Source: Deltaproteobacteria bacterium
GTDB taxonomy: Bacteria; Desulfobacterota; JADFVX01
Direction: 5' to 3'
Assembly: GCA_029860075.1 (NCBI GenBank)
Contig: JAOUBX010000044.1
Location: forward strand, 1 to 37,045
DNA: 37,045 bases
The notes below the pieces were generated by a model. The model had not been told where the DNA came from and searched no databases. It saw nothing but the letters and a program-made list of their open reading frames with translations. A program made the position numbers and the translations under genes. Below are positions 136 through 29,933 of the stretch, in pieces (position 1 is the stretch's first letter; each line of letters opens with the position of its first letter).

Positions 136-168
136 CCCCCTCCTTGAATAAGGAGGGGGCTTTTTTCT
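136..168 (+). terminator. Rho-independent terminator-like hairpin (ccccctcctt-gaat-aaggaggggg + TTTTTTCT), possibly bidirectional at the rtcB 3' end
   Basis: Perfect 10-bp GC-rich stem at 136-145/150-159 followed by a T-tract at 161-168 on the + strand. The T-tract overlaps the rtcB stop codon (167-169 on the minus strand). On the minus strand the hairpin is preceded by the A-run rather than followed by U's. Confidence 0.5.
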
Positions 169-1372
169 AGCCCTTCACAACACCAAGAGGCCTTAACTTA
201 ACTAAAGGTTTAATAAGGTCAAGCTCTGACTCGATAACTGTATCGATATCCTTGTACGCCTGAGGTGCCTCACCCAGATCATGGCTCCCCTTCTCCTTGC
301 CGTGTCTCACCTTGTTCCAGCGGTCAAAGACAATTCCTTCCATGGCCTCGTTGCATTCCTCGACGGAAAGACGGCGTGAGGCCTCATTCCTTCCCATGGC
401 ACGACCCGCACCATGAGAGCAGGAAGTGAAGGAGTCACTGCTCCCCAGGCCTTCTACTATGTAAGAGGGGCTTCCCATTGATCCGGGAATAATACCAGCT
501 TCGTTTGTACGTGCCGATGTAGCCCCTTTACGGTGAACCCAGACATTTTTGCCAAAATGATTTTCGATACCTGCATAGTTATGGTGAATGTTTATGGGAC
601 ATTCAAATTCAGTGTCAGGAAAGCTTTCACTTAAGGCCTCCTTGAAAGACTCCATAATTCTTCGCCTGTTTTCTTTTGCATAATCGAGTGCAAAATTCAT
701 GTCTGTAATGTAGGCCTTACCTTCCTTCGAGGAAAGGGGAAGAAAAGCGAGGTCCTTATTGGGGATCTTTGATTTCAACTTGTCATTGAGGCTCATTGCC
801 ACCTGGTTGTAGTACCGTGCGATCTGGTATCCCAGGTTTCGAGAACCCGAATGAATCATGAGCCACACATACCCGTCATCTCCCTCCTGTAGTTCAATGA
901 AGTGGTTTCCCCCTCCAAGCGTTCCAAGGTTTCTGTTTGCCAGCTTCCAGATATGCTCTGAATACCATTTACGGTCTTGTGGGTTTTCAATTTTTTCATC
1001 AAAGCCATTCCAGTCCTGCTTTTTCTTGTGGGCCTTTCCCTCACCACAGGGGACAAGTTCCTTTACTCTGGTGACTATCTGCCGGATCAACTCCCTCGAT
1101 GTTTCAGTCACGGGGAGATCTGTTTTAACAGCTCCCATACCGCAGCCAATATCAACGCCAACGGCATTGGGTATGACAGCGTCTTCACAGGCGATAACGC
1201 CACCGATAGGCATACCGTATCCCTGGTGGCAGTCGGGCATTAAGGCCACATGTTTAAATATAGCAGGATGTTTAGCCAGATCTTCAGCCTGTTTTAAGGC
1301 GCCATCTTCAATTTCACCACACCATGATTTAATAGGAACCCTGTAATTATCTTCATTTTTTACCCATTTCAT
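167..1372 (-). CDS. rtcB: RNA-splicing ligase RtcB (3'-phosphate/5'-OH RNA ligase)
   Basis: 401-aa ORF with hallmark RtcB motifs (MPDCHQGYGMPIGGV, GVDIGCGM, NHAGRxxxR-like C-terminus). The start is 13 nt after the rtcA stop and has an AGAGG RBS. Confidence 0.95.
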   Translation of the reverse strand: MKWVKNEDNYRVPIKSWCGEIEDGALKQAEDLAKHPAIFKHVALMPDCHQGYGMPIGGVIACEDAVIPNAVGVDIGCGMGAVKTDLPVTETSRELIRQIVTRVKELVPCGEGKAHKKKQDWNGFDEKIENPQDRKWYSEHIWKLANRNLGTLGGGNHFIELQEGDDGYVWLMIHSGSRNLGYQIARYYNQVAMSLNDKLKSKIPNKDLAFLPLSSKEGKAYITDMNFALDYAKENRRRIMESFKEALSESFPDTEFECPINIHHNYAGIENHFGKNVWVHRKGATSARTNEAGIIPGSMGSPSYIVEGLGSSDSFTSCSHGAGRAMGRNEASRRLSVEECNEAMEGIVFDRWNKVRHGKEKGSHDLGEAPQAYKDIDTVIESELDLIKPLVKLRPLGVVKG

Positions 1373-1384
1373 AATATTACCTCT

Positions 1385-2410
1385 TTATTCGTTGTTAAAT
1401 AGCTTGATTTCCCAAAGTCCCTCTTCCACTTCATCCATGGTAATATCGACTTTTAGAAATTTGCCAATTACCTCTGCATTTGTCCTGGTATGCTCCGTTG
1501 GTGAAAGAGTGGTGAACCTTCCTCCTCCTGCTATAGCCATTGGTATCAGTAGCTGGTCTGCCAGATATTTCCCTGCCACTGCCTTAGATTCAATGTATTG
1601 CCTGGCACGGTTTGCCGCTTTTTTTGCTACCTTTTCAGCCTTTACGCCCCTTTCACCAAAGCCTGTAAAAACTTCTCTCATATTTTCAGACTCAACCTCA
1701 ATGGTTATTACATTGCCCGGACCAGGTGAATCTTTGACGGTCTTTGCCTGAATGCAGGTTTTATCGAGATTAAAATAATCCATGACAATTTTTAGTTCTC
1801 TGTGAGCAATTTTTTCAGGTATCTGTGATGTAAGAGCCCTGGCTTTTATTCCAATAAGTTTGCCACGTGAAAGCAGTTCAATCTTTTCAAGTCTGTCAGC
1901 AGGATTTACAAGTACCTTAAACCTTCCTCCTCCGGCAGGATAAAAACCATGCTTTTCAAGGGATATGGAAACCTGAACACCCATTCTCTCCAAAAGTGGC
2001 AGAAAGGCCTTTTCGAGAAAATCAAAGGGTGGGGCCATAGGATTATGAGTCCCACCTTCAAGCACGATCTCTGACGGCCCTTTAGCCACCATAAGTGCAG
2101 GAAGTATTGACTGCAAGACAAGTGTACAACTCCCGGCAGAACCGATGGCAAAGTGGTATTTACCATTTTTGATTTGTTCAGGTTTAAAGGTAAGGCTCGT
2201 AGAACGGATTTCATTGCCCTCTGCCCGCGCATTTCCTATCTCAACGGCGGCATTAACTGCCGTCAGGTGCTGCCGCATAAGTCCCGGCTTTCTCCTTTTT
2301 GCCCTGATGTTTTCTATGCAGAATGGTTTGCCCGTTACGAGGGATAGGGCCAGCGCTGTTCTAAGTACCTGCCCGCCTCCTTCACCGTATGAACCATCAA
2401 TATTAATCAT
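1385..2410 (-). CDS. rtcA: RNA 3'-terminal phosphate cyclase RtcA
   Basis: Collinear with E. coli RtcA (GEGGGQVLRTALALS, PGLMRQHLTAVNAA, FAIGSAGSCTLVLQ). The longest ORF runs to 2455, but the internal Met (MINIDGSYGEGGGQ) at 2408-2410 has an AGGAG RBS and matches the canonical RtcA N-terminus. Confidence 0.92.
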   Translation of the reverse strand: MINIDGSYGEGGGQVLRTALALSLVTGKPFCIENIRAKRRKPGLMRQHLTAVNAAVEIGNARAEGNEIRSTSLTFKPEQIKNGKYHFAIGSAGSCTLVLQSILPALMVAKGPSEIVLEGGTHNPMAPPFDFLEKAFLPLLERMGVQVSISLEKHGFYPAGGGRFKVLVNPADRLEKIELLSRGKLIGIKARALTSQIPEKIAHRELKIVMDYFNLDKTCIQAKTVKDSPGPGNVITIEVESENMREVFTGFGERGVKAEKVAKKAANRARQYIESKAVAGKYLADQLLIPMAIAGGGRFTTLSPTEHTRTNAEVIGKFLKVDITMDEVEEGLWEIKLFNNE

Positions 2411-2501
2411 TTTTATTTCTCCTTTTTCCTTAGCTGCCGGGTCGCCCCCTGACAAATTCAGGGGCGACCCACCGACAGCAGGCCGACTGAATTGTACTTC
2501 A

Positions 2502-3608
2502 TTAGAGCAGGTTTACCACTCTGTCGGCCAGACCTTTTTCTCCTAAAACTACACTCAATTTAGAATTACCGGCAATCTTTTCAAGGAAGTCCAGTTCCTT
2601 AAGCCTCATAAGTGTGGGGTTGCTCTCAAGTATACGTGCTGTGTTTGCCTGACTTCTCATGGCTGCCGTTTCTTCCCGGCGCATAATCAGGTTTGCATGG
2701 GCTGCTTTTTGAGCCTCGATGACCTTGTTCATGAGTTCCTTCATTTCACCTGGCAGGATAATATCCCTGATGCCAAGACTGACAATCTCTATTCCAAATT
2801 CCATGCTACGTTGACGGATTGTCTTCTCCAGCTCCTGAGATACATTCTCCCTGTCAGTGAGAAGGGTATCAAGATCATAACTCCCGATGACGGCCCTGAT
2901 AGCAAGTTGTGCCTCCCTGTAAATAGCCTGACGACTATCATCACTGGCAATGACTGACTTAAGGGGGTCTGCAATGCGGTAATTTACGACAGCATTCATC
3001 CTGAGCGATACCTTGTCACGGCTCATAATTTCCTGACCCGCTACATCAAGTACGGTTTCCCGTATATCTACATGGTAAACCTTGACCTTTCCTATTCCTT
3101 TCCAGAAAAGGTGTTGACCCGGCCCTAATGTGTCGACAAACTCTCCATCCCTGAAGTATAGCCCTTTAAATCCCTCATCAACGAATACCATATGGAACCT
3201 TTCCGTTGCATCAGGTGAGTCTGCTATGCTTTTGCGGCTTTTATGGATAAAGCGGATCTCGCTGGCATCAATTATTTCAATTTTTACTTTCCTGAAGGTT
3301 GTCCAAAGAGCATATAGCCCTGGAGCAAGAACCTTTTCAAAGCGTCCATCTATCCAGACAAGGGCACGCTCTGAATCTTTAAGGTCTATTGTGGTCACTT
3401 CTTCATCTAACAAGCCTGACTTTACCATAATGTCGAGCTTTTCATGGGTAAGCCATGGATCCCTCATGGAGACGACATCTACCTTTATCTTGTTAAGAGG
3501 ATCAACAAAACGGTGCTTACCCTTATCAAGCAAACCCATAAATTCCTGTTCTTTAAAATAGAGTCCTTTCTCATAGGAATGAACTTTCTTTGTTTTTATG
3601 ATTAGCAT
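2502..3608 (-). CDS. SPFH/band-7 (slipin/stomatin-like) protein with duplicated N-terminal beta-rich module; no predicted TM helix
   Basis: 368 aa. The C-terminal ~200 aa show typical SPFH/stomatin features, including an Ala/Gln-rich coiled-coil tail (KVIEAQKAAHANLIMRREETAAMRSQANTARI). An N-terminal internal repeat is visible (EKGLYFKEQEFMGLLDKGKHRF vs FKGLYFRDGEFVDTLGPGQHLF). It is first in the operon upstream of rtcA-rtcB and has a good GGAGGG RBS. Confidence 0.8.
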   Translation of the reverse strand: MLIIKTKKVHSYEKGLYFKEQEFMGLLDKGKHRFVDPLNKIKVDVVSMRDPWLTHEKLDIMVKSGLLDEEVTTIDLKDSERALVWIDGRFEKVLAPGLYALWTTFRKVKIEIIDASEIRFIHKSRKSIADSPDATERFHMVFVDEGFKGLYFRDGEFVDTLGPGQHLFWKGIGKVKVYHVDIRETVLDVAGQEIMSRDKVSLRMNAVVNYRIADPLKSVIASDDSRQAIYREAQLAIRAVIGSYDLDTLLTDRENVSQELEKTIRQRSMEFGIEIVSLGIRDIILPGEMKELMNKVIEAQKAAHANLIMRREETAAMRSQANTARILESNPTLMRLKELDFLEKIAGNSKLSVVLGEKGLADRVVNLL

Positions 3609-4034
3609 TTTTAAAATCCCTCCTTCAATTTCTTAATTATCTATCACCGGGAAATAACCCTCCGGAAGCGTTCCCTCTTTCAGCCACACCTTCAGGTGCG
3701 GAGCCAAGCTTGAGTTTTCTTCTGCTTAAGGCTGCCTTTAGCGTCCACCTTTATTTGCAGTAACTTCTTTCACTGTCATCACTCAAAAGGCTTCAGTCTG
3801 TAGGTCTGCCTAAAGCAGGCAGAAAGCGGTATCTGCTTGCTGCATGGCACCTTTAAATGCTGCCCTGTCAGGTTTTGAAATCCTCACCCTTTGGGGAGTG
3901 ACTTTACTAATGCCTTAACAGGGCCGGTCAAAAAAGGGGCGCTTCCTTCAGGTCGATATTGGCGATCATTACGATCAAAGGGGTTTTTAGCCCCTGCTTG
4001 GCGCAGGACTCGAACCTGCAACACTCACAGTATG

Positions 4035-4066
4035 GTGTCGTATCAACCGCAAATTATCATTCTCAG
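4035..4066. repeat. Inverted repeat arm R (32 bp), partner of 4270..4301
   Basis: gtgtcgtatcaaccgcaaattatcattctcag is the reverse complement of 4270..4301 with 30/32 identities. In the minus-strand RNA the two arms form a ~32-bp helix closing the inserted module. Confidence 0.9.
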
Positions 4067-4269
4067 AGTCATTCATAAAGTCCAAGGCAAGGCGCAGTCA
4101 TGCAAAAATAGTTATTCATATTTTAAATGGCTGCAACGCCGCATTGGGCTTTATGGGTGTCTCCCTTCGGGCGATATGATAAGTGGCCATCTACTGCGTC
4201 GTACTCACTTGAATTAGTAACAACTAGTCCTGCGCTCGTACGTCTTGCATATGACCACTTCTCATATCG

Positions 4270-4301
4270 CTGAGATTGATAATTTGCGGTTGACACGACA
4301 C
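4270..4301. repeat. Inverted repeat arm L (32 bp), partner of 4035..4066
   Basis: ctgagattgataatttgcggttgacacgacac, which is the reverse complement of arm R with 2 mismatches. Confidence 0.9.
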
Positions 4302-4476
4302 TCATGTGATGCTCTACCCATTGAGCTAACCAGTTCCCAATACCGGCCTTTGTCAGATCCCATGTCCGGTACACACAATGTTAATCTTTCAAACAGTGTG
4401 TGCCGCTGGCCCGGCGGTATGAGCTTTTTAAAGAACCTGATAGCGGGCATTTCCGCCATCTCTTGCCTTCTATAAT

Positions 4477-4492
4477 GGCAACTCATGTGCCA
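4477..4492 (-). promoter_or_regulatory. Sigma54 (-24/-12) promoter for the leader-spfh-rtcA-rtcB transcript
   Basis: The minus strand reads TGGCAC-ATGAG-TTGCC (revcomp of + 4477-4492 ggcaactcatgtgcca). This is an exact TGGCAC-N5-TTGC with correct GG/GC spacing. It points toward the tRNA-mimic leader and rtc genes, and the cognate sigma54 activator RtcR is encoded divergently. Confidence 0.65.
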
Positions 4493-4569
4493 ACTTTATA
4501 AAAAAAGCCAAAATACTTCTTAACTATCTGTAATAACGAATATAATTTATTTTTACAGACAATTCTGTC

Positions 4570-4598
4570 TTGACAACTGTTCTCGAATAATGCATATT
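4570..4598 (+). promoter_or_regulatory. Candidate sigma70 promoter for rtcR (-35 TTGACA, 17-bp spacer, -10 CATATT)
   Basis: TTGACA at 4570-4575 and CATATT at 4593-4598, about 37 nt upstream of the rtcR ATG. An adjacent small palindrome cAGACAattcTGTCTt could be an RtcR/autoregulatory site. Sequence match only. Confidence 0.3.
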
Positions 4599-4634
4599 TC
4601 TTATATGTATTTATAAGAAAGTATAAAATTAGAT

Positions 4635-6212
4635 ATGAAAAAAACAGTGGCAATTGGTTTGCTAGGAACCATGATGGATCAGGGCAAAGATGAGAAGCGC
4701 TGGCAGCGGTGGCGTCCGACGGTATCCCTTTGTCAGCATGAGGAATTGCTTATAGACCGCCTGGAGCTACTCTACGAAAAACGCTACTCTTCAATTGTGA
4801 AACAGGTTGCTCAAGATATTAAAGCTGTGTCGCCGGAAACAGAAGTAGTCCCTCAAAATGTACATTTTAGAAATCCCTGGGATTTTGAGGAGGTCTATGG
4901 TGTCCTTCACGACTTTGCCAGAGGCTACACTTTTGATGTAGAGAACGAGGATTATCTTATCCATATTACGACGGGAACACATGTGGCCCAGATATGCCTC
5001 TTTCTCCTGACCGAGTCTCACTACTTTCCTGCAAGGCTGATTCAGACCAGTCCGGCGGGAAGGCAAAAGGTTGAAGGTTCTTATGCCATTATCGATCTCG
5101 ATCTCTCAAAATACGACCAACTCGCCATGCGCTTCAGGCAGGAAATCAAGGACGATATCTCCTTCCTCAAGTCCGGCATAGAAACAAGAAATGAGGCTTT
5201 TAACAGTCTTATTGAAAGGATAGAGCGCGTTGCCATGCACTCCATCGACCCAATTCTCCTCATGGGGCCCACAGGGGCAGGTAAGTCAAAGCTGGCCCGC
5301 AGGATCTACGATCTCAAGCAGAGTCGGCGACAGTTGGCGGGAAATTTTGTCGAAGTCAATTGTGCCACGCTCCGGGGGGACGGTGCCATGTCGGCTCTTT
5401 TCGGCCACAAAAAGGGAGCTTTTACAGGGGCCATTGAGGGGAGGGAAGGGCTTTTAAGGGCTGCCGACAAGGGAGTTCTCTTTCTAGATGAGGCAGGAGA
5501 ACTAGGGCTTGATGAACAGTCCATGCTTTTAAGAGCCATTGAAGAAAAATCATTTCTCCCTGTCGGAGCGGACAGGGAAGTCAATAGCGACTTTCAACTG
5601 ATCTGCGGAACGAACCGGGATCTTCAAAAAGACGTTGCCCATGGACGTTTCAGGGAAGATCTTTTTTCCCGTATCAATTTGTGGACCTTTAACCTTCCTG
5701 GACTAAAAGAACGCCCTGAAGATGTAGAGCCCAACCTCGATTATGAACTGGACCGTTTTGCCGAGAGAAATAATCTGCATGTTACCTTTAATAAAGAAGC
5801 CAGAAAAGGCTTTCTTGATTTTTCTACATCCCCCGAAGCTTCATGGTCGGCCAACTTTCGAGATCTAAACAGTGCCGTCACCCGAATGGCAACACTCTCA
5901 AAAGGAGGACGGATAAGGGAAGAGGAAGTTCTTGAAGAAATGGGACGGCTGAGGAAATTGTGGAGCAAACCGGAAAAGGGAGAAGATGTTTTAATTGAAC
6001 GACTTGGAGAAGAAAAGGTTGACCGTCTTGACCGTTTTGACCGGGCGCAACTGGCCGATGTGCTGAGCGTATGCAAGCAATCCAAAAGCCTATCCGAGGC
6101 GGGGCGTATTCTTTTTAACGTATCAAGAAAAAGCAAGAAAACCAGCAATGATGCCGACAGGTTGCGAAAATATCTTACGCGATTTGATATTAACTGGACT
6201 GATTTGCAATGA
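4635..6212 (+). CDS. rtcR: Sigma54-dependent transcriptional activator RtcR (N-terminal CARF domain + AAA+ sigma54-interaction domain + C-terminal HTH)
   Basis: 525 aa, collinear with E. coli RtcR (KKTVAIGLLGTMMDQ..., Walker A GPTGAGKS, and GAFTGA at 5419-5436). It is divergent from the sigma54 promoter of the rtc operon. Confidence 0.95.
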   Translation: MKKTVAIGLLGTMMDQGKDEKRWQRWRPTVSLCQHEELLIDRLELLYEKRYSSIVKQVAQDIKAVSPETEVVPQNVHFRNPWDFEEVYGVLHDFARGYTFDVENEDYLIHITTGTHVAQICLFLLTESHYFPARLIQTSPAGRQKVEGSYAIIDLDLSKYDQLAMRFRQEIKDDISFLKSGIETRNEAFNSLIERIERVAMHSIDPILLMGPTGAGKSKLARRIYDLKQSRRQLAGNFVEVNCATLRGDGAMSALFGHKKGAFTGAIEGREGLLRAADKGVLFLDEAGELGLDEQSMLLRAIEEKSFLPVGADREVNSDFQLICGTNRDLQKDVAHGRFREDLFSRINLWTFNLPGLKERPEDVEPNLDYELDRFAERNNLHVTFNKEARKGFLDFSTSPEASWSANFRDLNSAVTRMATLSKGGRIREEEVLEEMGRLRKLWSKPEKGEDVLIERLGEEKVDRLDRFDRAQLADVLSVCKQSKSLSEAGRILFNVSRKSKKTSNDADRLRKYLTRFDINWTDLQ

Positions 6213-6258
6213 AGAGGATGTATCATTGAAAATTATTGAAAACAAACTGATAGTTAAA

Positions 6259-7179
6259 ATGAAGTTCGGTTCTCATCTTTATGGAACAGCAACCTCTCAT
6301 TCGGATGTGGATTACAAAGGTATTTTTCTGCCGACCAGGGAAGAAGTTCTTCTCGGTAAAATAGCGAAATGTCATAGCTACACCTCGGGAGAGGAGGGTG
6401 CAAAAAATACGAAGGATGATATTGATATTGAACTCTATTCTCTTCATTTTTTTATTAAGCTCGCCTGTGATGGTCAGACCGTTGCCATGGATATGCTTCA
6501 TGCCCCTCAAGATATGTTGATTGAATCGTCGCCCATCTGGGTTGATATTGTTAATAATCGAGAGAAATTCTATACTAAAAACCTTAAATCCTTCATTAAT
6601 TATGCCCGCCGTCAGGCAAGCAAGTATGGTATTAAAGGTTCCAGGTTGAGTGCTGTGAGAACCATTCTTGATCTGCTTGAAAAAGAAGATTCTTCAAAAA
6701 AGATGAGGGAAATCTGGCATATGCTCCCCGAGCTTGAACACTGTTATCATGTTGCACCTAATCCCGATGGTATGAGGCAGTATCAGGTATGCGGAAAATA
6801 TTTTCAGGAATCTGCTGCCATCGATTACGTCATCCCCATTTTGCAAAAGTTCAGTAACGATTATGGAGGAAGGGCGAGACAGGCGTCGGAAAATAAAAAT
6901 GTCGACTGGAAGGCTGTTTCTCATGCCTTAAGGTCAGCATATCAGACCAGGGAAATACTGACCTACAAGAGGATTACTTTTCCATTAAAGGAGGCTGAAC
7001 TTTTAAAAAAGGTCAAAGAAGGTAAGATGGATTATATGTCGGAAGTTGCGCCCCTTTTAGAGGATTTAATGGATGAAGTTGAAAGTCTGGTCGCCGAAAG
7101 CTCACTTCCTGAAAAAGTTGATCAGAAGTTCTGGGATGATATTATTTGCAATACCCTGGAGAAAGAGTTGTTTGGATAG
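6259..7179 (+). CDS. Pol-beta-superfamily nucleotidyltransferase (RlaP/COG3541-like, RNA-repair associated), paralogue 1
   Basis: NTase motif GSHLYGTATSHSDVDYKGIF (GS...DxD). The longest ORF starts at 6148 and overlaps rtcR by 65 nt. Alternative in-frame starts are TTG 6226 and ATG 6259, so the start is uncertain. A conserved helical C-terminal half follows. Confidence 0.7.
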   Translation: MKFGSHLYGTATSHSDVDYKGIFLPTREEVLLGKIAKCHSYTSGEEGAKNTKDDIDIELYSLHFFIKLACDGQTVAMDMLHAPQDMLIESSPIWVDIVNNREKFYTKNLKSFINYARRQASKYGIKGSRLSAVRTILDLLEKEDSSKKMREIWHMLPELEHCYHVAPNPDGMRQYQVCGKYFQESAAIDYVIPILQKFSNDYGGRARQASENKNVDWKAVSHALRSAYQTREILTYKRITFPLKEAELLKKVKEGKMDYMSEVAPLLEDLMDEVESLVAESSLPEKVDQKFWDDIICNTLEKELFG

Positions 7180-7185
7180 ATCGAT

Positions 7186-7950
7186 ATGAAAGAAATTATT
7201 ATTAAAGAACTGGAAAAAATTGAAAAAGAGTTTCATGTCAGGATCATCTATGCCTGTGAGTCAGGCAGCCGTGCATGGGGATTCCCATCAATGGACAGTG
7301 ATTATGATGTACGTTTTATCTACGTTCACCCAAGAGACTGGTATCTTTCCATCGGTGAGAGACGGGATGTTATCGAGCGTCCTATCGATAGTGAGCTGGA
7401 TATTGGTGGTTGGGATATTCGAAAGGCCCTCAAGCTCCTGAAAAAATCAAATTCCCCTCTTCTGGAATGGATTTCTTCGCCTATAGTTTACCGTCAGATT
7501 GGGTCCGTTATGGCTCCCTTCAGGGATCTATCGGAAAAGGCTTTTTTGCCTGAATCTTCATTTCACCACTACCTCGCCATGGCGAAAAAGAAGGTGTCTG
7601 AGATGCAGGAGGAAGAGAAGGTTCGTGCTAAAACGGCTTTCTACGCATTGAGGCCACTTTTATGCTGCACATGGATAGTTGAATTTGGAACCCAGCCTCC
7701 AATGAAAATCGATGAACTTCTATCAGTCTTTATTCCCCATGGTGATTTGCGTGATTACCTCGATGAATTAATAGATGAAAAAAGCAGGAACACTGAATCC
7801 TTTCTTATAGAGCCCTGTACTGAATTGGATGACTACCTTGAACTACAGTTGAGTGAGCTTCAGTTGAATGTGCCTAAAAATCCCGAAAAACTTAAAACTG
7901 AAGTTTTTGATGAAGTTTTCAGGGACGTTTTGAGAACGGTTGAAGAATGA
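7186..7950 (+). CDS. Pol-beta-superfamily nucleotidyltransferase (RlaP/COG3541-like), paralogue 2
   Basis: 254 aa with motif ACESGSRAWGFPSMDSDYDVRFIY (GS...DxD), typical of the ~250-aa predicted-nucleotidyltransferase family found in RtcB neighbourhoods. It starts 6 nt after paralogue 1. Confidence 0.7.
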   Translation: MKEIIIKELEKIEKEFHVRIIYACESGSRAWGFPSMDSDYDVRFIYVHPRDWYLSIGERRDVIERPIDSELDIGGWDIRKALKLLKKSNSPLLEWISSPIVYRQIGSVMAPFRDLSEKAFLPESSFHHYLAMAKKKVSEMQEEEKVRAKTAFYALRPLLCCTWIVEFGTQPPMKIDELLSVFIPHGDLRDYLDELIDEKSRNTESFLIEPCTELDDYLELQLSELQLNVPKNPEKLKTEVFDEVFRDVLRTVEE

Positions 7951-13794: not shown

Positions 13795-16700
13795 ATGAAA
13801 CAAGACATGCTTCAAGCAGTAATTGAGCAGCTCGATTTTAGCAATGGACAGCTCTTTAGCACTGTAGAAGTCTCTCGTGGATCGCTTAGCCGGAAGGATT
13901 GGCTGGACAAAGGAGATTGGCTTCTTTCTGCCCAAAAAGCTGGAGTGGAGTATATCTTTTTTGTTGAGAACAACCCCGTTGCAGTTTTTGCACGGAGCAA
14001 AAAGTCAGATGAAGAGAAAATTGCAGTTTTCAATAAAATTTGGTGTTTGGCACGACCTCGCCTTCTATTTCTGGAATCAGAAGGTGAGCTTTCTGTTATA
14101 GACCTGGCACAAGCCCCGATACGGCAAGAATGGAACGTCGATAAACAAAAACTTACCGCATTAGAGATATTGACATCCGTTGAGAAGGTTGCACGTAAAT
14201 TACAAAAATATCACCGTGACAATATTGAAACAGGCAAGGTCTTTGAGCATGGACGATTTGGTGATTTAAAACATCGGGCCGATCAGGCGTTGATTGCTGA
14301 CTTGAGGACCGTCAGGGGTGAATTGATGCAGGCAGGCCTTCACGGTCCCAAAATGCAATATGCCCATGCTCTAATCGGACGATCCATATTTATTCGTTAT
14401 CTGGAAGACCGGGGCATTTTAACTGAAGAGTATTTTTCTAAAGTTGCTGGATCAAATCCGACATGGCAGACACTATTACAAAATCCTTATTCACGTGACC
14501 AAATGGATTTCTCCGGCGTTAAAGCAAAATATCCACGTGTACTTCAGGATAAGGATTTTACTTATGCATTATTCCGCATGCTCTCGATAGATTTTAATGG
14601 AGATATGTTTCCTGACATTGATGAGGAAGAAAAAAATATTGAGGGCAGGCACCTGCAACTCATACAAGAACTTTTATATGGTGATGTTGGCTCTCAGAAA
14701 AAGCTGTTTTTTTACTCCTATAAGTTCGATATCATCCCGCTCGATCTGATCAGTGCGATCTATGAGGAATTTTACCATGCATCAGCAAGTGCGAACGAAA
14801 AAAAGAGCAAGGCACGGCAAGACGGAGCTTACTACACCCCGCCGGCACTGGCCGAATTCGTTCTGTCAAGAATACTGACTGATGAAGTGTTACAGAAAAA
14901 TCCGAGAATACTAGATCCGGCATGTGGCTCCGGGATATTTCTGGTTGAAGCATTCCGTCGAGTTGTTCGTTATCGGCTATATCAAAAGAAATCTTCTCTA
15001 CATTTCAGCGAATTGAAGGAAATACTCGGAAGGCAGATTGCAGGCATTGAGGTCAATGAAGAAGCAGCCCGAATCACCGCATTCAGCTTATACCTTGCCA
15101 TGCTGCACTATCTGGATCCACCATCCATTTTTGAACACATCCTGAATGGAGATAAACTGCCAAACCTGATTATGTCAGCGAATGAGTTAGACAATCATTA
15201 CAACAGCATCCATGTGGCTAATGCGTTTGCTCTCGACAATAAAAACGTAGGAGAAATTGATGTTGTGGTGGGCAATCCTCCATGGGGTGCGCCCAATAAT
15301 CCAAGTAAGGGTGCCAAAGATCGTCAGCGCATCATGCTGGACTGGTGCAAAAAAAGAAAATACCCCATTGGAGACAACGAACCATCCCAGGCTTTTCTTT
15401 GGCGATCGCTGGATTTCCTGAATAAAGAAGGCCGGTGCGCCTTGTTGACCTCTGCTGGGGTTCTTTTCAACCATAGTTCAACCACACAGACGTTCCGCCG
15501 AGAATGGATGAGCAGAGTTTGCATTACGGAAGTATTCAACTTCTCTCATGTGCGGAAATTCTTCTTCAAGGGAGCAGATTCTCCTTTTGTGATGATTCAT
15601 TTCAAGAATGGTGAACAAGGTAAAACTCCGGTTGAATACTGGTCCCTAAAACAGGTGGCTTCACTTAAGGAAACACAAGCAATCCTGCTGTCGAAATATG
15701 ATCGAGCTTATTTGACGGGACAAGACCTGACCGACAATAAAACATGGAAAGCTAATTGGTTCGGTAGACATGCGGATACAGTGTTTTTTCATCAGTTTCA
15801 TAATTTTAAAACATTATTAGATCACATAGATAGGAGATTCTCAGGCCAAGGGATATCACCCAATCCTCCCCAAAAAGCTACAGACGATTTGCCAAGAAAT
15901 TTATTGGTACAATCTTCATTTAGTCGTTTCAATGATTCTCTACAGTTTAAAAATTTACCCCTGCGTGTATACAGACTAGGAAAAATAGAAACATATACTG
16001 GCCCACGTTTATTAATTAAAAGAGGTATATCCGAAAAGGGGGAGACAAAAGGTACTGTTGTTGCCAGATATGAATCTAAGAATTTTTGTTTTACAAACGC
16101 AATTAATGGAATCAAATTAATCAATAATGAAGAAACACAATATTTACTTTTTCTTGGTATCTTGTGGTCATCATTCAGTAGATATTTTTATTTCAATATC
16201 TCAGCAAATTGGGGGTTGTGGCATCATGAAATTCACCTTGATGATGAATTGCTTCAACTCCCCATTCCTAGTCGTCTACGGGGAAAGGAAGCAAACCACG
16301 TTGTCTCCATCGTCAAAAAACTCCGAAACTACCAGCCTCAGGTACAGGACGTATTATATCCTGATGGTGTTCCGCAAAATGAAATCGAATTACAGCGGCG
16401 TAAATGGGAAGCGGAACTTGATGAGGCTGTCTTTGATTTGTACGGTTTTACCAAAGAACAGCAGGATTTGATCCGTGATTGCTGTGAAGTGACTCTGCCA
16501 TTCTTTTATCAGCCTTATAACAGTGTTGGCGCTATGCCAGGAGTAAAAGGCAGTGATACTTCCTGGATAAAACACTATGCTGAACGGTTTGCCCGACGCT
16601 GGCAACCTTATCTGAATCAAGACGAAATTCTGCGGGCTGACCTTCACATTGGCGCGTCCGGTAATATGGTCGCCATAGAATTTTACCCGGCAGACTTGGG

Positions 16701-16959
16701 CGATGAGTGGAATCTATCACCCAAAACAGATTCTTGGGGGCATGTTCTGGAAGAAATCAGCAAGTCATTACCACGTCCCATGGGGACATCTCAAATCCTG
16801 CTTGATGGGATCGTCCATATCGTGACAGATAACAGCATCATAGTTATAAAACGCAACGAGAAACGATTCTGGACACGAAGTCTGGCCTACGAGGATGCTG
16901 AGTCCACATTGGCCAAGCGTATGCTGGAAACAATGCCTGAAAAGAGTGGTGTTGAATAG
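13795..16959 (+). CDS. Large gamma-class N6-adenine DNA methyltransferase (Eco57I/MmeI/PglX-like architecture: N-terminal helical domain, MTase core, C-terminal TRD)
   Basis: 1054 aa with motif I ILDPACGSGIFLVEAF, motif IV VVVGNPPWG and a ~500-aa C-terminal region. No convincing D...ExK nuclease motif is seen in the N-terminal 330 aa. Confidence 0.85.
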   Translation: MKQDMLQAVIEQLDFSNGQLFSTVEVSRGSLSRKDWLDKGDWLLSAQKAGVEYIFFVENNPVAVFARSKKSDEEKIAVFNKIWCLARPRLLFLESEGELSVIDLAQAPIRQEWNVDKQKLTALEILTSVEKVARKLQKYHRDNIETGKVFEHGRFGDLKHRADQALIADLRTVRGELMQAGLHGPKMQYAHALIGRSIFIRYLEDRGILTEEYFSKVAGSNPTWQTLLQNPYSRDQMDFSGVKAKYPRVLQDKDFTYALFRMLSIDFNGDMFPDIDEEEKNIEGRHLQLIQELLYGDVGSQKKLFFYSYKFDIIPLDLISAIYEEFYHASASANEKKSKARQDGAYYTPPALAEFVLSRILTDEVLQKNPRILDPACGSGIFLVEAFRRVVRYRLYQKKSSLHFSELKEILGRQIAGIEVNEEAARITAFSLYLAMLHYLDPPSIFEHILNGDKLPNLIMSANELDNHYNSIHVANAFALDNKNVGEIDVVVGNPPWGAPNNPSKGAKDRQRIMLDWCKKRKYPIGDNEPSQAFLWRSLDFLNKEGRCALLTSAGVLFNHSSTTQTFRREWMSRVCITEVFNFSHVRKFFFKGADSPFVMIHFKNGEQGKTPVEYWSLKQVASLKETQAILLSKYDRAYLTGQDLTDNKTWKANWFGRHADTVFFHQFHNFKTLLDHIDRRFSGQGISPNPPQKATDDLPRNLLVQSSFSRFNDSLQFKNLPLRVYRLGKIETYTGPRLLIKRGISEKGETKGTVVARYESKNFCFTNAINGIKLINNEETQYLLFLGILWSSFSRYFYFNISANWGLWHHEIHLDDELLQLPIPSRLRGKEANHVVSIVKKLRNYQPQVQDVLYPDGVPQNEIELQRRKWEAELDEAVFDLYGFTKEQQDLIRDCCEVTLPFFYQPYNSVGAMPGVKGSDTSWIKHYAERFARRWQPYLNQDEILRADLHIGASGNMVAIEFYPADLGDEWNLSPKTDSWGHVLEEISKSLPRPMGTSQILLDGIVHIVTDNSIIVIKRNEKRFWTRSLAYEDAESTLAKRMLETMPEKSGVE

Positions 16960-17627
16960 TGGCCAGAAAAACACGAAAAATTGGTGGGTTTGCTCAGCTA
17001 TGGCAGCGACATGAAAATCTCTATCATTCTATATGCTGCAATGCTCTTGCACAGCTTATTATTACCGATGATCAGCGTAAGGATGAGGATGCCATATCCG
17101 AAGCGCTTTGCCCAATCTTACTACAGGTGTGCTTCAGTCATCCTGATAAACCAAAGCCCCCTGAATGGGAACTTCCGATTGCGCCCGTAAGTAGTGTTGA
17201 CCTTAAAGGAGGTAAAGTCCGAAAGCGTCCGGATTTTACCTGCACACTTGTAAACACATTTGCCGATTCCTGCGAGATGTATGCAATAGCTCTTCACATC
17301 GAATGTAAGCGGCTGGGCAAAAAAATTGGCTCATGGGACCTTAATAAAAACTACATCGAAAATGGTGTGAATCGCTTTGACTCCAGAACACATGAATACG
17401 GCAAATATGCACCATGCGGGATAATGATAGGATACATCGTAAATTCAGAAAAGAATGATGTTCTTAATGATGTCAATAGTCGTTTGCCGTCAACAATATC
17501 GGCACTTAAGTTTTCTTTCGCTACAAAAGTTGAACATTGCGATTCTTTATTCAACCGTAACTGCGTTGCTCCAAAGCAATTCAAACTGATTCATATCTGG
17601 GTAGATTTAACTGGTAACGCTCAATAA
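16959..17627 (+). CDS. Putative PD-(D/E)xK nuclease, translationally coupled to the methyltransferase (candidate restriction component)
   Basis: 222 aa. GTG start overlaps the MTase TAG (taGTG). The sequence RPDFTCTL...x...IALHIECKR gives a PD-x23-E-C-K motif. There is no other recognisable domain. Confidence 0.45.
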   Translation: MARKTRKIGGFAQLWQRHENLYHSICCNALAQLIITDDQRKDEDAISEALCPILLQVCFSHPDKPKPPEWELPIAPVSSVDLKGGKVRKRPDFTCTLVNTFADSCEMYAIALHIECKRLGKKIGSWDLNKNYIENGVNRFDSRTHEYGKYAPCGIMIGYIVNSEKNDVLNDVNSRLPSTISALKFSFATKVEHCDSLFNRNCVAPKQFKLIHIWVDLTGNAQ

Positions 17628-27704: not shown

Positions 27705-29921
27705 ATGTATATATCTCCCCTTAAAAAGATAAAAATTGCCGAACTGGAAGACAGGCAAAGAAGAAGGAGAGATTTTTACATCCTCATAGGGACCATTTTG
27801 ACAATGGCGGGGCTGACATTTCTTGAAACCGCGCTGTACAAGCAGGGAGGTGAACTCCCCGTTGCCAACAATATCCTCATATTTGTCATTATTAATATTA
27901 ATGTCATCCTCCTTCTTCTCATTCTTTACCTCCTTGTAAGAAACCTGGTAAAGCTATTTTTTGAACGAAAAAGCCGGATTCTCGGTGCAAAACTCAAAAC
28001 CAAACTTGTTGCCGCCTTTGTATCTTTATCGCTTATACCAACGCTTCTTCTCTTCTCTTTTTCAGTTGCCTTCATTTCAAACAGTATTGAAGATTGGTTC
28101 AGCGCTCCCGTTGAAAAGACCCTTAAGGGGGCGGAACAGATATCGAGAAGTTTTAATAATGCCAAGGCTGACGAAGCTATTTACCATGCCAATCAGATAA
28201 GCAAGAAGATCAAGGAGCGAAAGCTCATTAATCAAAACAGGCTCAACTCTCTCAGGTGGTATCTCAAGGCCAAAGTTGTTGAGTACAGGCTGGGAAGTAT
28301 TGAAGTGTTTTCACCGCATCAAAAGGTTTTGGCCGCTGCCGTTCACCCCGACCTTTCTGCCGACCTTTTCTCCTTACCCGAGTCCTCTCTTATAAAAGAT
28401 GGATTAATGGGCAAAAAAACATCCGTCATTCAGACTGTAGGCAAAGGGGATATGATAAGGGGCGTTTCTCCCATTTATTCAACATGGAAAAAAGATGATA
28501 TTGTTGCCGTCGCTGTTGCCACCTATTACATTCCTTACAGGCTTGTTGCCAAAATGACCGATATCAGCAACTCCTACAAGGAGTACAGGCAGCTTAAAAT
28601 GGTCAAGTATCCCGTTAAAATGAATTATCTCATGACGCTGCTTATGGTGACGCTTGTCATTATTTTTACGGCAATCTGGTTCGGCCTTTACCTTGCAAAG
28701 GGGATTACCGTGCCTATTCAGGAACTGGCAGAAGGAACCAATGAGGTTGCCAACGGCAATCTTGACTTTAAGATCGACCTTGAGTCAGGCGATGAGGTGG
28801 GCACACTGGTGAGTTCTTTTAACAAGATGACGGAAGATATCAAAGTGAGCAAAAGGAGGCTCGAAAAGAGTAACCTCGACCTGGAAAACAGACGCCGGTA
28901 TATCGAGATCATTTTAAGAAGTGTGACGGCGGGCGTTATCTCTGTGGACAAGCTGGGTAAAATCAGTACCATTAACAGGTCTGCCGAAAAAATGGTTGGT
29001 GTTAGAGGGGAGGATATTTTAAACAGGAACTACAAGAAAGTGGTCGGCAAATATTATCAGGAAATGATAAAGAGTATGGTAAAGGCCGCTTTTGCCGCCG
29101 GTGGAACGATAGAAAGGGAAACCAAGCTGACACTTAAGGGAGAGAACGTGACTCTTCTTATCAGCCTGTCCATATTACGTGATGAAAGAAATAATTACCT
29201 TGGTATGGTTCTTGTTTTCGATGATCTGACGGAACTCATTAAGGGGCAGAGGGCTGCTACCTGGAGGGAAGTTGCCCGGCGCATTGCCCATGAGATAAAA
29301 AACCCCCTTACTCCCATACAGCTTTCGGCGCAAAGATTGCAAAAACGATTTGGGGACAAGGTTGATGACGAAATGGATATTTTTGGAGAGTGCACCTCAA
29401 CCATTATCAGCCAGGTTGATGAACTGAAGGCGCTTGTTAATGAGTTTTCCAGTTTTGCCCGCCTTCCCGCAGCGAATCCCGTTGCTACTCATATAGGAGA
29501 GATCATTAAAGAGGTCCTTTCCCTCTATCGTGAAGCCCATAAGGATGTTGATTTCAGAACCTTCATGCCCGACAATATTCCGCTTCTTAATCTCGATCAG
29601 AAGCAGATCAAACGGGTTTTTATTAACCTTCTTGAAAATGCTGTCGAGGCATTGAGGTTGGAAGGGGTTATTGAAATTTCGGCACGCCATAACGAGGAAG
29701 AGAGAAAAGTGGAGATTACCGTTGCCGATAATGGCGCAGGGATTTCTCTCCACGATAAAAACAGGCTCTTTGAACCTTATTTTTCAACCAAAAAAGGGGG
29801 AACCGGTCTGGGCCTCGCCATTATTGATACGATCATGAAAGATCATAAAGCCGCTATCAGGGTGAAGGATAATGTTCCAAGGGGTACGAAGTTTATGCTA
29901 GAATTTCCTGTAATGAGTTAA
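27705..29921 (+). CDS. ntrY: Membrane sensor histidine kinase, NtrY-like (TM region, HAMP, PAS, HisKA with HEIKNPLTPI, HATPase_c)
   Basis: 738 aa with N-terminal TM helices, an H-box RIAHEIKNPL, and N/G boxes (DNGAGI, GGTGLGLAI). It lies immediately upstream of a sigma54-dependent response regulator. The symbol is by architecture and synteny only. Confidence 0.75.
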   Translation: MYISPLKKIKIAELEDRQRRRRDFYILIGTILTMAGLTFLETALYKQGGELPVANNILIFVIININVILLLLILYLLVRNLVKLFFERKSRILGAKLKTKLVAAFVSLSLIPTLLLFSFSVAFISNSIEDWFSAPVEKTLKGAEQISRSFNNAKADEAIYHANQISKKIKERKLINQNRLNSLRWYLKAKVVEYRLGSIEVFSPHQKVLAAAVHPDLSADLFSLPESSLIKDGLMGKKTSVIQTVGKGDMIRGVSPIYSTWKKDDIVAVAVATYYIPYRLVAKMTDISNSYKEYRQLKMVKYPVKMNYLMTLLMVTLVIIFTAIWFGLYLAKGITVPIQELAEGTNEVANGNLDFKIDLESGDEVGTLVSSFNKMTEDIKVSKRRLEKSNLDLENRRRYIEIILRSVTAGVISVDKLGKISTINRSAEKMVGVRGEDILNRNYKKVVGKYYQEMIKSMVKAAFAAGGTIERETKLTLKGENVTLLISLSILRDERNNYLGMVLVFDDLTELIKGQRAATWREVARRIAHEIKNPLTPIQLSAQRLQKRFGDKVDDEMDIFGECTSTIISQVDELKALVNEFSSFARLPAANPVATHIGEIIKEVLSLYREAHKDVDFRTFMPDNIPLLNLDQKQIKRVFINLLENAVEALRLEGVIEISARHNEEERKVEITVADNGAGISLHDKNRLFEPYFSTKKGGTGLGLAIIDTIMKDHKAAIRVKDNVPRGTKFMLEFPVMS

Positions 29922-29933
29922 AGGGAGAATGCA

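Follow-up and report, generated by a model that had tools for sequence, protein, structure and literature searches.

A probable RtcR-controlled RNA-repair locus of the slipin/RlaP type and the conserved, structured leader RNA preceding its SPFH gene

Gene content of the rtc locus

The window analysed here is the whole of a 37,045-bp contig from a deltaproteobacterial metagenome-assembled genome (MAG), and it includes an RNA-repair locus divided between the two strands. On the minus strand are genes for an SPFH (slipin) protein, the RNA cyclase RtcA and the RNA ligase RtcB; facing them on the plus strand are genes for the activator RtcR and two nucleotidyltransferases, NT1 and NT2. The 1026-nt gap between the two groups contains a predicted sigma-54 promoter and a long leader preceding the SPFH gene (Table 1). 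The locus is probably an RtcR-controlled RNA-repair system of the slipin-plus-RlaP subtype, with the same gene set as PA4581-PA4585 of Pseudomonas aeruginosa. The gene set itself is ordinary, representing one more Rtc operon of this type, and the locus departs from the known kind because an RlaP pair is found behind rtcR and because an insert splits the tRNA-like element of the leader. The part deserving follow-up is the leader RNA and its association, across phyla, with a vault-like SPFH protein and tRNA arrays.

Table 1. Features of the rtc locus, in order of position in the window
Feature	Position	Strand	Description and evidence
Likely operon terminator	136-159		G+C-rich hairpin with T runs on both sides, just beyond the rtcB stop codon; terminator scan
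rtcB, RNA 3'-phosphate/2',3'-cyclic-phosphate ligase, 401 aa	167-1372	-	PF01139, E=4e-111, full profile
rtcA, RNA 3'-terminal phosphate cyclase	1385-2410	-	NF003246, E=4e-137; PF01137 and PF05189
Soluble slipin/SPFH protein, 368 aa	2502-3608	-	Band_7 PF01145, E=7e-34, residues 143-313
Leader 3' domain, ~390 nt	3609-3998	-	Long-range covarying helices; ends at the SPFH Shine-Dalgarno sequence
tRNA-like element, 3' half	3999-4034	-	Anticodon-stem 3' strand, variable region, T arm GCAGGTTCGAGTCCTGC, short acceptor 3' strand; aligned to the uninterrupted element of locus L081
Insert in anticodon loop of tRNA-like element, 267 nt	4035-4301	-	25-bp terminal inverted repeats, 4035-4059 and 4277-4301
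tRNA-like element, 5' half	4302-4332	-	Short acceptor 5' strand, D arm GCTCAATGGGTAGAGC, anticodon-stem 5' strand
Leader module 1	4340-4420	-	Outer stem, CCAGCGGC box, variable hairpin, near-invariant GTACCGGACATGGGATCTGAC box; 49-locus alignment A3
Predicted sigma-54 -24/-12 promoter element TGGCACATGAGTTGCC	4477-4492	-	One mismatch to TGGCAC-N5-TTGCW; faces the leader and SPFH-rtcA-rtcB
Candidate sigma-70-like promoter for rtcR, TTGACA-17-CATATT	4570-4598	+	Consensus scan, 10/12 matches; candidate by consensus match only
rtcR, CARF-domain sigma-54 enhancer-binding activator, 525 aa	4635-6212	+	NF038308 equivalog, E=6e-247; PADLOC RtcR model, E=6e-259
NT1, long-subtype RlaP-family nucleotidyltransferase, 317 aa	6226-7179	+	PF10127, E=1e-15, N-terminal half; Pol-beta nucleotidyltransferase core, divergent C-terminal half
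NT2, canonical RlaP nucleotidyltransferase, 254 aa	7186-7950	+	PF10127, E=1e-87, profile positions 1-249

The list of open reading frames (ORFs) contains three tightly packed frames on the minus strand (2502-3608, 1385-2455 and 167-1372) and three on the plus strand (4635-6212, 6148-7179 and 7186-7950). All six rtc-locus genes proposed in an initial annotation are thus present at or near the positions assigned to them, with strong matches to Pfam and NCBIfam families. The same annotation had also noted that Ro60/TROVE, archease and PrfH are missing, and none of these is found among the 20 other window ORFs of at least 150 aa; no TROVE match was detected in the 26 window ORFs scanned.

The three core proteins are clearly assigned. 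RtcA scores 457 bits against NF003246 (cut-off 352) and its gene is separated from rtcB by 12 nt on the same strand. The long rtcA ORF reaches a TTG at 2455, but the true start is probably the ATG at 2410, because the profiles begin at residue 15-17 of the long ORF. RtcR exceeds the NF038308 equivalog cut-off (820 bits against 650) and contains the expected pair of matches, PF06956 (E=1e-85, residues 2-181) and PF00158 (E=7e-49, residues 184-350). Its gene is divergent from the rtcA/rtcB operon, as in Rtc systems. In such systems, ribotoxins or stress break RNA and leave 2',3'-cyclic-phosphate ends; tRNA halves with these ends bind the CARF domain of RtcR and turn on sigma-54 transcription (PMC7790460). 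RtcA cyclises 3'-phosphate ends, and RtcB joins 3'-phosphate or cyclic-phosphate ends to 5'-OH ends.

The RlaP nucleotidyltransferases

The RlaP family was reportedly named by Burroughs and Aravind in 2016 (NAR 44:8525), and Pfam describes the corresponding family, PF10127, as RlaP, an RNA repair pathway DNA polymerase beta family. Both nucleotidyltransferases of the window are above the PF10127 threshold (cut-off 23 bits). NT2 matches the full profile with 294 bits, and NT1 reaches 58.7 bits with profile positions 19-144 alone covered. The C-terminal half of NT1 (residues ~151-291) lies outside the RlaP match and shows a weak resemblance to the PADLOC Csa3 model (E=3e-4) that is not trusted. 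The Pol-beta catalytic signature, composed of G[SA], DxD and a third carboxylate, is preserved in both proteins: NT2 reads GS...DSDYD, and in NT1 the residues G17, D29xD31 and D67/D69/E71 are invariant in 14 members of the populous subfamily of ~311 aa to which it belongs. The profile check places both in an RNA-repair family, with no antibiotic-nucleotidyltransferase placement and no other Pfam family matched. Their earlier description as paralogues is correct at the level of PF10127 and fails at any closer level, with BLASTP giving 19% identity over 91 aa (E=0.22). A sequence search of the PDB returned no RlaP relative with a solved structure.

The NT1 ORF was initially thought to overlap rtcR, beginning at 6148. 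Translation more likely begins at the TTG at 6226, behind an AGAGGA Shine-Dalgarno sequence; this start agrees with the 317-aa NCBI product and removes the overlap. A start at a GTG/GTA codon at 6220 was considered and rejected, as the sequence reads GTA. With the TTG as its start, NT1 follows rtcR after 13 nt, and a further 6 nt separate it from NT2; spacing this short makes co-transcription of all three genes plausible. The RlaP pair would accordingly lie on the predicted rtcR transcript, ~4.9 kb from the RNA ligase gene rtcB in the same locus. It had been suggested that a single CARF sensor governs all parts of the locus. This does not follow, because the nucleotidyltransferases are probably behind the sigma-70-like promoter candidate, on the predicted transcript of the sensor itself, and not behind the sigma-54 promoter. 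Made together with RtcR from that promoter, the RlaP proteins would be present before induction.

The name RlaP derives from an operonic link to RNA ligases (PMC12776372). Two Pseudomonas RlaP enzymes, the only ones whose activity is known, were characterised biochemically in 2025 and extend RNA 3'-OH ends by 1-2 nucleotides; the rlaP gene of both P. fluorescens and P. aeruginosa is located between rtcB and rtcA, under RtcR (PMC12776372). Published work on the family proposes that RlaP may restore nucleotides that trimming toxins have removed.

Conservation of the gene neighbourhood

To survey neighbourhoods, aligned SPFH homologues served as the query against a set in which each GTDB species is represented by a single genome, and 80 loci were recovered. 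In seven Desulfobacterota-type loci (L001, L002, L003, L008, L048, L058 and L076) the SPFH gene is found with rtcR, rtcB and/or rtcA, and it is found with rtcA and/or rtcB in L086 and L087 as well. Gene order varies, and a divergent rtcR adjoins in all such loci but L008, where the contig starts just upstream of the promoter; in L003, rtcR alone is visible before the contig ends. The arrangement of the window, with rtcR, then the leader, then SPFH-rtcA-rtcB, recurs in related Desulfobacterota-type genomes, and homologue look-ups place rtcR beside SPFH-rtcA-rtcB in Syntrophotalea carbinolica and in one more contig. The 89%-identical relative L081 has a layout identical to that of the window, including rtcR-RlaP-RlaP; this placement of the RlaP pair is a local variant that the window shares with L081. 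In Adhaeretor mobilis (Planctomycetota; L013), all genes are on one strand in the order rtcB-rtcA-(30 tRNAs)-leader-SPFH-RlaP-x-RlaP, and the two RlaPs are unlike.

Several partial arrangements were also detected. In L082 (7709-10939) and L083 (120-3797), an SPFH-rtcA-RlaP group with an RlaP of the NT1 type adjoins rtcR, with no rtcB in the following 10 kb. In Citrobacter freundii (L147, NZ_CP151862.1, 3948-7901), rtcR is divergent from a slipin-RlaP operon without rtcA or rtcB, which shows that a unit under RtcR control can be made up of just the two accessory proteins; in the 448-nt leader of this operon, no tRNA-like element was found by ARAGORN. The NT1-NT2 pair stands alone in L084 (5365-7892) and L085 (2105-4950), with no rtc gene nearby, preceded by a small ORF and an M78 peptidase gene and followed by PIN, SNase and RelB genes.

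These data bear on the possibility that the SPFH and nucleotidyltransferase genes are chance neighbours of the rtc genes, or that the nucleotidyltransferases belong to a toxin-antitoxin (MNT/HEPN) or antibiotic-resistance family. A profile search detects RlaP within 5 kb of SPFH in just 4 of the 80 loci, making the RlaP-SPFH link sporadic, and most of the SPFH homologues found, which are in Planctomycetota, have no rtc gene nearby. The combinations nonetheless recur in Desulfobacterota-type MAGs, in Planctomycetota, in Citrobacter and, from the literature, in Pseudomonas; the genes are tightly spaced, and both nucleotidyltransferases match PF10127 and no other Pfam family (vide supra). This possibility is already contradicted and is very improbable. 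The recurrence in other genomes, which the initial annotation had proposed to look for, shows that the SPFH and nucleotidyltransferase genes are true but facultative companions of rtc genes. Because most of the Planctomycetota homologues are without rtc neighbours, the unit of SPFH gene and leader RNA is not specific to Rtc repair.

The closest described counterpart is the P. aeruginosa locus, in which rtcR (PA4581) is divergent from PA4582 (SPFH, PaFlo8)-rtcB-PA4584 (RlaP)-rtcA (PMC8619066; PMC13086221); that PaFlo8 is embedded in the rtc locus was pointed out in a 2026 study (PMC13086221). The two loci share the same five protein families, a divergent rtcR facing an operon that opens with SPFH, and the presence of RlaP (PMC8619066, PMC13086221, PMC12776372). 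They differ in that P. aeruginosa has one RlaP gene between rtcB and rtcA, whereas the window has two unlike RlaP genes behind rtcR and the order SPFH-rtcA-rtcB. The Escherichia coli rtcR/rtcBA locus similarly has a CARF/sigma-54 activator divergent from a sigma-54 operon for RtcB and RtcA, but neither SPFH nor RlaP is present there, and descriptions of the locus include no long tRNA-like leader.

The initial annotation regarded the gene set as non-canonical and possibly uncharacterised, and envisaged a larger RNA-damage or conflict system in which a single CARF sensor would direct the joint action of SPFH, the nucleotidyltransferase pair and a tRNA mimic. The grouping of these components with the Rtc genes is borne out, since they recur together; the stand-alone RlaP pairs of L084 and L085, beside M78 peptidase, PIN and SNase genes, are in a setting typical of conflict islands. 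The novelty of the gene set is not borne out. Its protein families have already been described and named (PF10127 RlaP; the P. aeruginosa operon), the nucleotidyltransferases of the window are not behind the sigma-54 promoter, and no PADLOC defence model matches SPFH, RtcA, RtcB or NT2, with PADLOC matches being limited to the RtcR models and the Csa3-like match on NT1. A previously uncharacterised system is therefore improbable, and labelling the locus as a slipin/RlaP-type Rtc operon prevents a false claim of novelty.

The SPFH protein

The SPFH protein belongs to a highly conserved family of 368 aa. An AlphaFold (AF2) model built from 21 homologues, with a confidence (pLDDT) of 81.5, contains three all-beta repeats of ~55 aa (residues 1-181), the SPFH alpha/beta domain, and a long C-terminal helix (residues 287-348). 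The proposal that the protein is cytoplasmic is supported by its hydropathy, with a maximum Kyte-Doolittle value of 1.07 over 19 residues, and by the model, which opens with beta strands and not with a helix. By both measures there is no N-terminal membrane anchor of the type present in stomatin, HflK/C and prohibitin. Likewise, no partner gene for an NfeD or FtsH-type protease was found in the window or in the related loci with listed genes. The plasmid collection contains homologues of 32-37% identity only.

When the model is compared with the PDB using Foldseek, stomatin (E=5e-16), HflK/C, prohibitin and flotillin match the C-terminal two-thirds. Major vault protein (MVP) alone aligns over the full length, including the repeats (410-429 columns, E=9e-11 to 2e-8), with TM values of 0.34-0.41 normalised to the query. 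The architecture of the modelled protein resembles that of MVP, a likeness of fold that implies neither membership in the MVP family nor a particle; no match to the Pfam Vault repeat or MVP_shoulder families was found at E<=0.01. The features in common with the eukaryotic vault are N-terminal beta repeats, an SPFH-like shoulder, a long cap helix, and a genetically linked structured RNA of small or medium size. The differences are also considerable: MVP has 9 repeats and the window SPFH has 3, the sequences are 11-13% identical, and a TROVE or PARP partner is lacking. The vault particle consists of MVP, vault RNA and TEP1, which has a TROVE domain.

Two longer homologues in alignment A1, P0068 (434 aa) and P0074 (501 aa), contain one or two extra N-terminal beta repeats of ~65 aa each. 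The number of repeats is therefore variable, as in vault-protein-like architectures.

Promoter and architecture of the leader RNA

The sigma-54 promoter element is predicted to drive a leader of ~870 nt, followed by SPFH-rtcA-rtcB. Matches to the sigma-54 consensus are not significant by themselves across the window (21 found, 18 expected). However, the same element is present at the same position in eight relatives (L001, L002, L003, L008, L048, L058, L076 and L081). Downstream of the promoter, the leader comprises module 1, a tRNA-like element interrupted by an insert, and a 3' domain.

The initial annotation had called for a tRNA-mimic RNA, and a tRNA-like element is indeed found within the predicted RtcR/sigma-54 transcript, as indicated by its D and T arms, by RF00005 matches in relatives, and by covariation (vide infra). 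Reading along the minus strand, the D arm is at ~4326-4311 and the T arm at ~4019-4003, ~290 nt apart. ARAGORN reports no tRNA in the window, and Rfam finds nothing credible, either in the window at the gathering score or in 3500-4750 at E<=10. Both programs miss the element because the 267-nt insert splits its anticodon loop, which also takes the window copy below the RF00005 gathering score. The uninterrupted orthologous element scores 39-70 bits against RF00005 in 7 loci, and 52.5 bits in L013.

The element has the unpermuted order D-anticodon-T, and its relatives align to RF00005 positions 1-71. Only 3-5 acceptor pairs are conserved, compared with the 7-bp stem of a tRNA. Among relatives, ARAGORN returns either "tRNA-???" or differing and unusual anticodons such as ATG and ACA. 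The anticodon loops vary in sequence from locus to locus and often have 6 nt where a tRNA has 7; the element therefore resembles a handle in the shape of a tRNA more than a tRNA used in decoding.

Alignment shows that the insert is absent from the 89%-related locus L081. Its inverted repeats are unique to this site within the window, and the inverted repeat has no match in viral contigs. The insert folds into a long, very stable rod (z-score -10.1) and has no Rfam match. From these features it could be a MITE-like element (resembling a miniature inverted-repeat transposable element) or a lineage-specific RNA arm or helical extension. A group I intron was rejected, as there is no Rfam intron match and the 25-bp inverted repeats and rod fold fit the other readings better. 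In L001, the closest genome locus, a separate tRNA-model match (60 bits, 15215-15327) ~1.1 kb downstream of rtcB spans 113 nt, which corresponds to an insert of ~40 nt.

Conservation and covariation of the leader RNA

A single-sequence nhmmer search with the window leader, after removal of the insert, detected matches directly upstream of SPFH and on the same strand in 53 of 85 loci. These include distant Planctomycete loci, several of them covered over ~500 nt, and in distant loci the matches reach the 3' domain. The conservation is also found in the opposite direction. Among metagenome contigs that contain a 22-nt motif of module 1 and at least 900 nt of sequence downstream of it (n=35), 31 have an SPFH gene downstream on the same strand, 500-650 nt from the motif, and many contigs have tRNA arrays upstream. 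Three metagenome loci with the module-1 motif (L094, L098 and L115) are arranged differently, with SPFH-like matches 99 and ~400 nt downstream, and L129 contains 26 tRNAs and the motif with no SPFH within 2.8 kb.

The pattern of substitution is that of a folded RNA. An alignment of 49 copies of module 1 and the tRNA-like element contains 26 consensus pairs, of which 17 have compensatory changes. Overall, 97% of cells are paired, a value reached in none of 500 shuffles (0/500), while control structures slid by 1-3 columns give 29-52%. In helix 1 of module 1 (columns 24-33 with 83-93), compensatory changes occur in 6 of 9 pairs; the outer stem of the module was left unscored, the MAFFT alignment being out of register there. 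For the 3' domain, an alignment of 72 leaders yields 41 alifold pairs, 29 of which show three or more standard pair types together with pairing of at least 80%. Across the aligned leaders, variation is tolerated in the anticodon loop, whereas the D and T arms, which form the elbow of a tRNA, are nearly invariant. Taken as a whole, the leader is a conserved RNA whose structure includes a tRNA-like cloverleaf, and it accompanies the SPFH family across phyla. It is not described in the literature found and is unannotated apart from its tRNA-like part: Rfam 15 gives no match beyond that part in the related leaders, and literature searches combining RtcB, RtcR and Band-7, tRNA-like, RtcB and leader, or MVP and RtcB found nothing relevant.

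A tRNA-like RNA within an rtc operon invites comparison with the YrlA-type Y RNAs of the Ro60/Rsr system, which would imply an rsr gene elsewhere in the genome. In Salmonella, rsr-yrlBA-rtcBA operons encode Y RNAs with tRNA-like domains (PMC7790460; PMC4201824). The rsr-yrlB-yrlA-rtcB-rtcA operon resembles the window locus in having an RtcR-controlled transcript with a tRNA-like non-coding RNA ahead of the ligase and cyclase genes, and in both the first gene encodes an RNA-associated protein of ring or cage type, putatively so in the window. That gene is Ro60/TROVE in Salmonella, whereas in the window it is SPFH and the tRNA-like domain is unpermuted. YrlA, in contrast, has a circular permutation that puts the T arm first, then an acceptor-like hairpin and the D arm; it is encoded no more than about 4 kb from rsr on the same strand (PMC4201824), with its tRNA-like domain closed by a Ro-binding stem (PMC4201824). 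The order in the window is D-anticodon-T, and the relatives match RF00005 directly. No TROVE gene is present in the window or among the genes listed for related loci, and module 1 does not contain the GNCGAAN0-1G box as such. At ~550 nt without the insert, the window leader is also much larger than a Y RNA and matches no Y RNA model. An assignment to this class is very unlikely.

Association with tRNA arrays

In Planctomycetota, the leader-SPFH unit is located directly downstream of arrays of 10-39 tRNA genes, on the same strand. ARAGORN calls number 35 in L004, 36 in L005, 40 in L009 and 30 in L013. Of the 70 genome loci for which 1.5 kb or more of upstream sequence is available, 18 have at least 10 upstream tRNA calls, 13 have 3-9, and 32 have 1-2, which are usually the tRNA-like element itself; the remaining 7 have none. 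The loci with arrays include L004, L005, L009, L012, L013, L016, L017, L024, L040 and L047, in which the arrays lie ~600-7000 nt upstream of SPFH (with SPFH at ~10001). Array order is largely conserved, ending in His, Trp, Thr, three or four Arg and Cys, then the leader RNA.

Long tRNA arrays (L-arrays) are known, and in cyanobacteria rtcB adjoins and is co-regulated with them (PMC8421152). In an Anabaena trcR mutant, rtcB (77-fold), alr0740, annotated as a "slipin family protein" (42-fold), and the tRNA operon are derepressed, and binding of TrcR was shown for the promoters of rtcB and alr0739-0740 (PMC10272220). Points in common with the systems described here are the link of tRNA arrays to rtcB, the co-derepressed slipin gene of Anabaena (PMC8421152, PMC10272220) and, in Planctomycetota, the position of the orthologous SPFH gene behind tRNA arrays. 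Unlike the arrays, the window has a single tRNA-like element, and its regulation is of the RtcR/sigma-54 type, not TrcR. The literature found on tRNA arrays makes no mention of a linkage to SPFH or of the leader RNA.

Possible roles of the leader RNA and the SPFH protein

The predicted order of events at the locus would begin with RtcR and the RlaP proteins already present, and RNA ends that engage the CARF domain would induce the leader and the SPFH-rtcA-rtcB genes. By analogy with other SPFH proteins and MVP, the SPFH protein may form a soluble ring or cage that concentrates or shields RNA substrates. The leader would be either a processed partner RNA or a cis-regulatory element. It is possible, and we suggest only tentatively, that tRNA-processing enzymes excise the leader at its tRNA-like element and that it then acts with an SPFH assembly; a purely cis-regulatory role is about as likely.

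In the latter case, the leader would be a cis-acting 5' untranslated region that controls SPFH expression, with RNase P/Z cleavage at the tRNA-like element or a response to tRNA status as possible means, and no RNA would act in trans. Its position agrees well with such a role, as it is always 500-650 nt upstream of the SPFH start and on the same strand, with the last helix near the Shine-Dalgarno sequence. In Planctomycetota, moreover, the leader lies between the tRNA array and the mRNA, a point at which a signal for processing would serve a purpose. On the other hand, a processing signal would not be expected to extend over ~550 nt and include many covarying long-range helices, and a variable anticodon loop, in which a 267-nt insert is tolerated, combined with near-invariant D and T arms suits recognition by a protein. 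Neither of these points is decisive, and the cis-acting role remains a tenable alternative that falls short of being probable.

A more specific proposal is that the ~550-nt leader RNA and the anchor-less, vault-like SPFH protein together make up a soluble ribonucleoprotein cage, in which tRNAs or tRNA fragments would be bound or sheltered, and that different lineages have either plugged this unit into RtcR-controlled repair or placed it at the end of whole tRNA gene arrays. This proposal is doubtful at present. If true, it would unite the slipins linked to rtc genes and the enigmatic tRNA L-arrays in a single function that is open to testing.

Several observations weigh against the overall reading of the locus as an RtcR-controlled repair system of the slipin-plus-RlaP subtype. 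The sporadic occurrence of RlaP near SPFH and the many Planctomycetota homologues without rtc genes have been noted above. Co-transcription of the leader with SPFH, and of rtcR with the RlaP genes, is predicted from spacing and orientation. The orthology of the window SPFH to PA4582 is taken from a source annotation, one close homologue bearing the name "...subunit PA4582", and Anabaena alr0740 is likened to the window SPFH by its annotation as a slipin. Deletion of the P. aeruginosa SPFH gene (paFlo8) had no phenotype in the assays tried. The products of RlaP end in 3'-OH and are not ligatable by RtcB, a gap flagged by the RlaP authors themselves (PMC12776372). Finally, because the insert interrupts it, the tRNA-like element of the window may be impaired.

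Three observations go beyond the literature found. The first is that an rtc-linked slipin lacks a membrane anchor and resembles a short major vault protein. The second is that a large covarying RNA with a tRNA-like domain precedes the SPFH gene from Desulfobacterota to Planctomycetota, and the third is that in Planctomycetota as many as 39 tRNA genes form arrays at whose end this RNA-SPFH unit stands. Together they connect three poorly understood items, namely SPFH proteins in rtc operons, RlaP pairs and tRNA L-arrays, and they suggest a bearing on how bacteria protect or restore the tRNA pool under ribotoxin or antibiotic stress.

Other features of the window

The 20 other window ORFs of at least 150 aa have unrelated functions, including a TetR regulator, a phosphoenolpyruvate-utilising enzyme, an MmeI-like methylase, aconitase B, Rho and an NtrY/NtrX-like pair. 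The methylase, a 1054-aa protein encoded at 13795-16959, contains N6_Mtase, Eco57I and MmeI methylase domains, a combination typical of type IIG/IIL restriction-modification enzymes; its ORF is overlapped by a 222-aa ORF (16959-17627) without a Pfam match. A second sigma-54 system is encoded at 27705-31286, where an NtrY-like histidine kinase is followed by an NtrX/NtrC-type response regulator, and it is apparently unrelated to the rtc locus.

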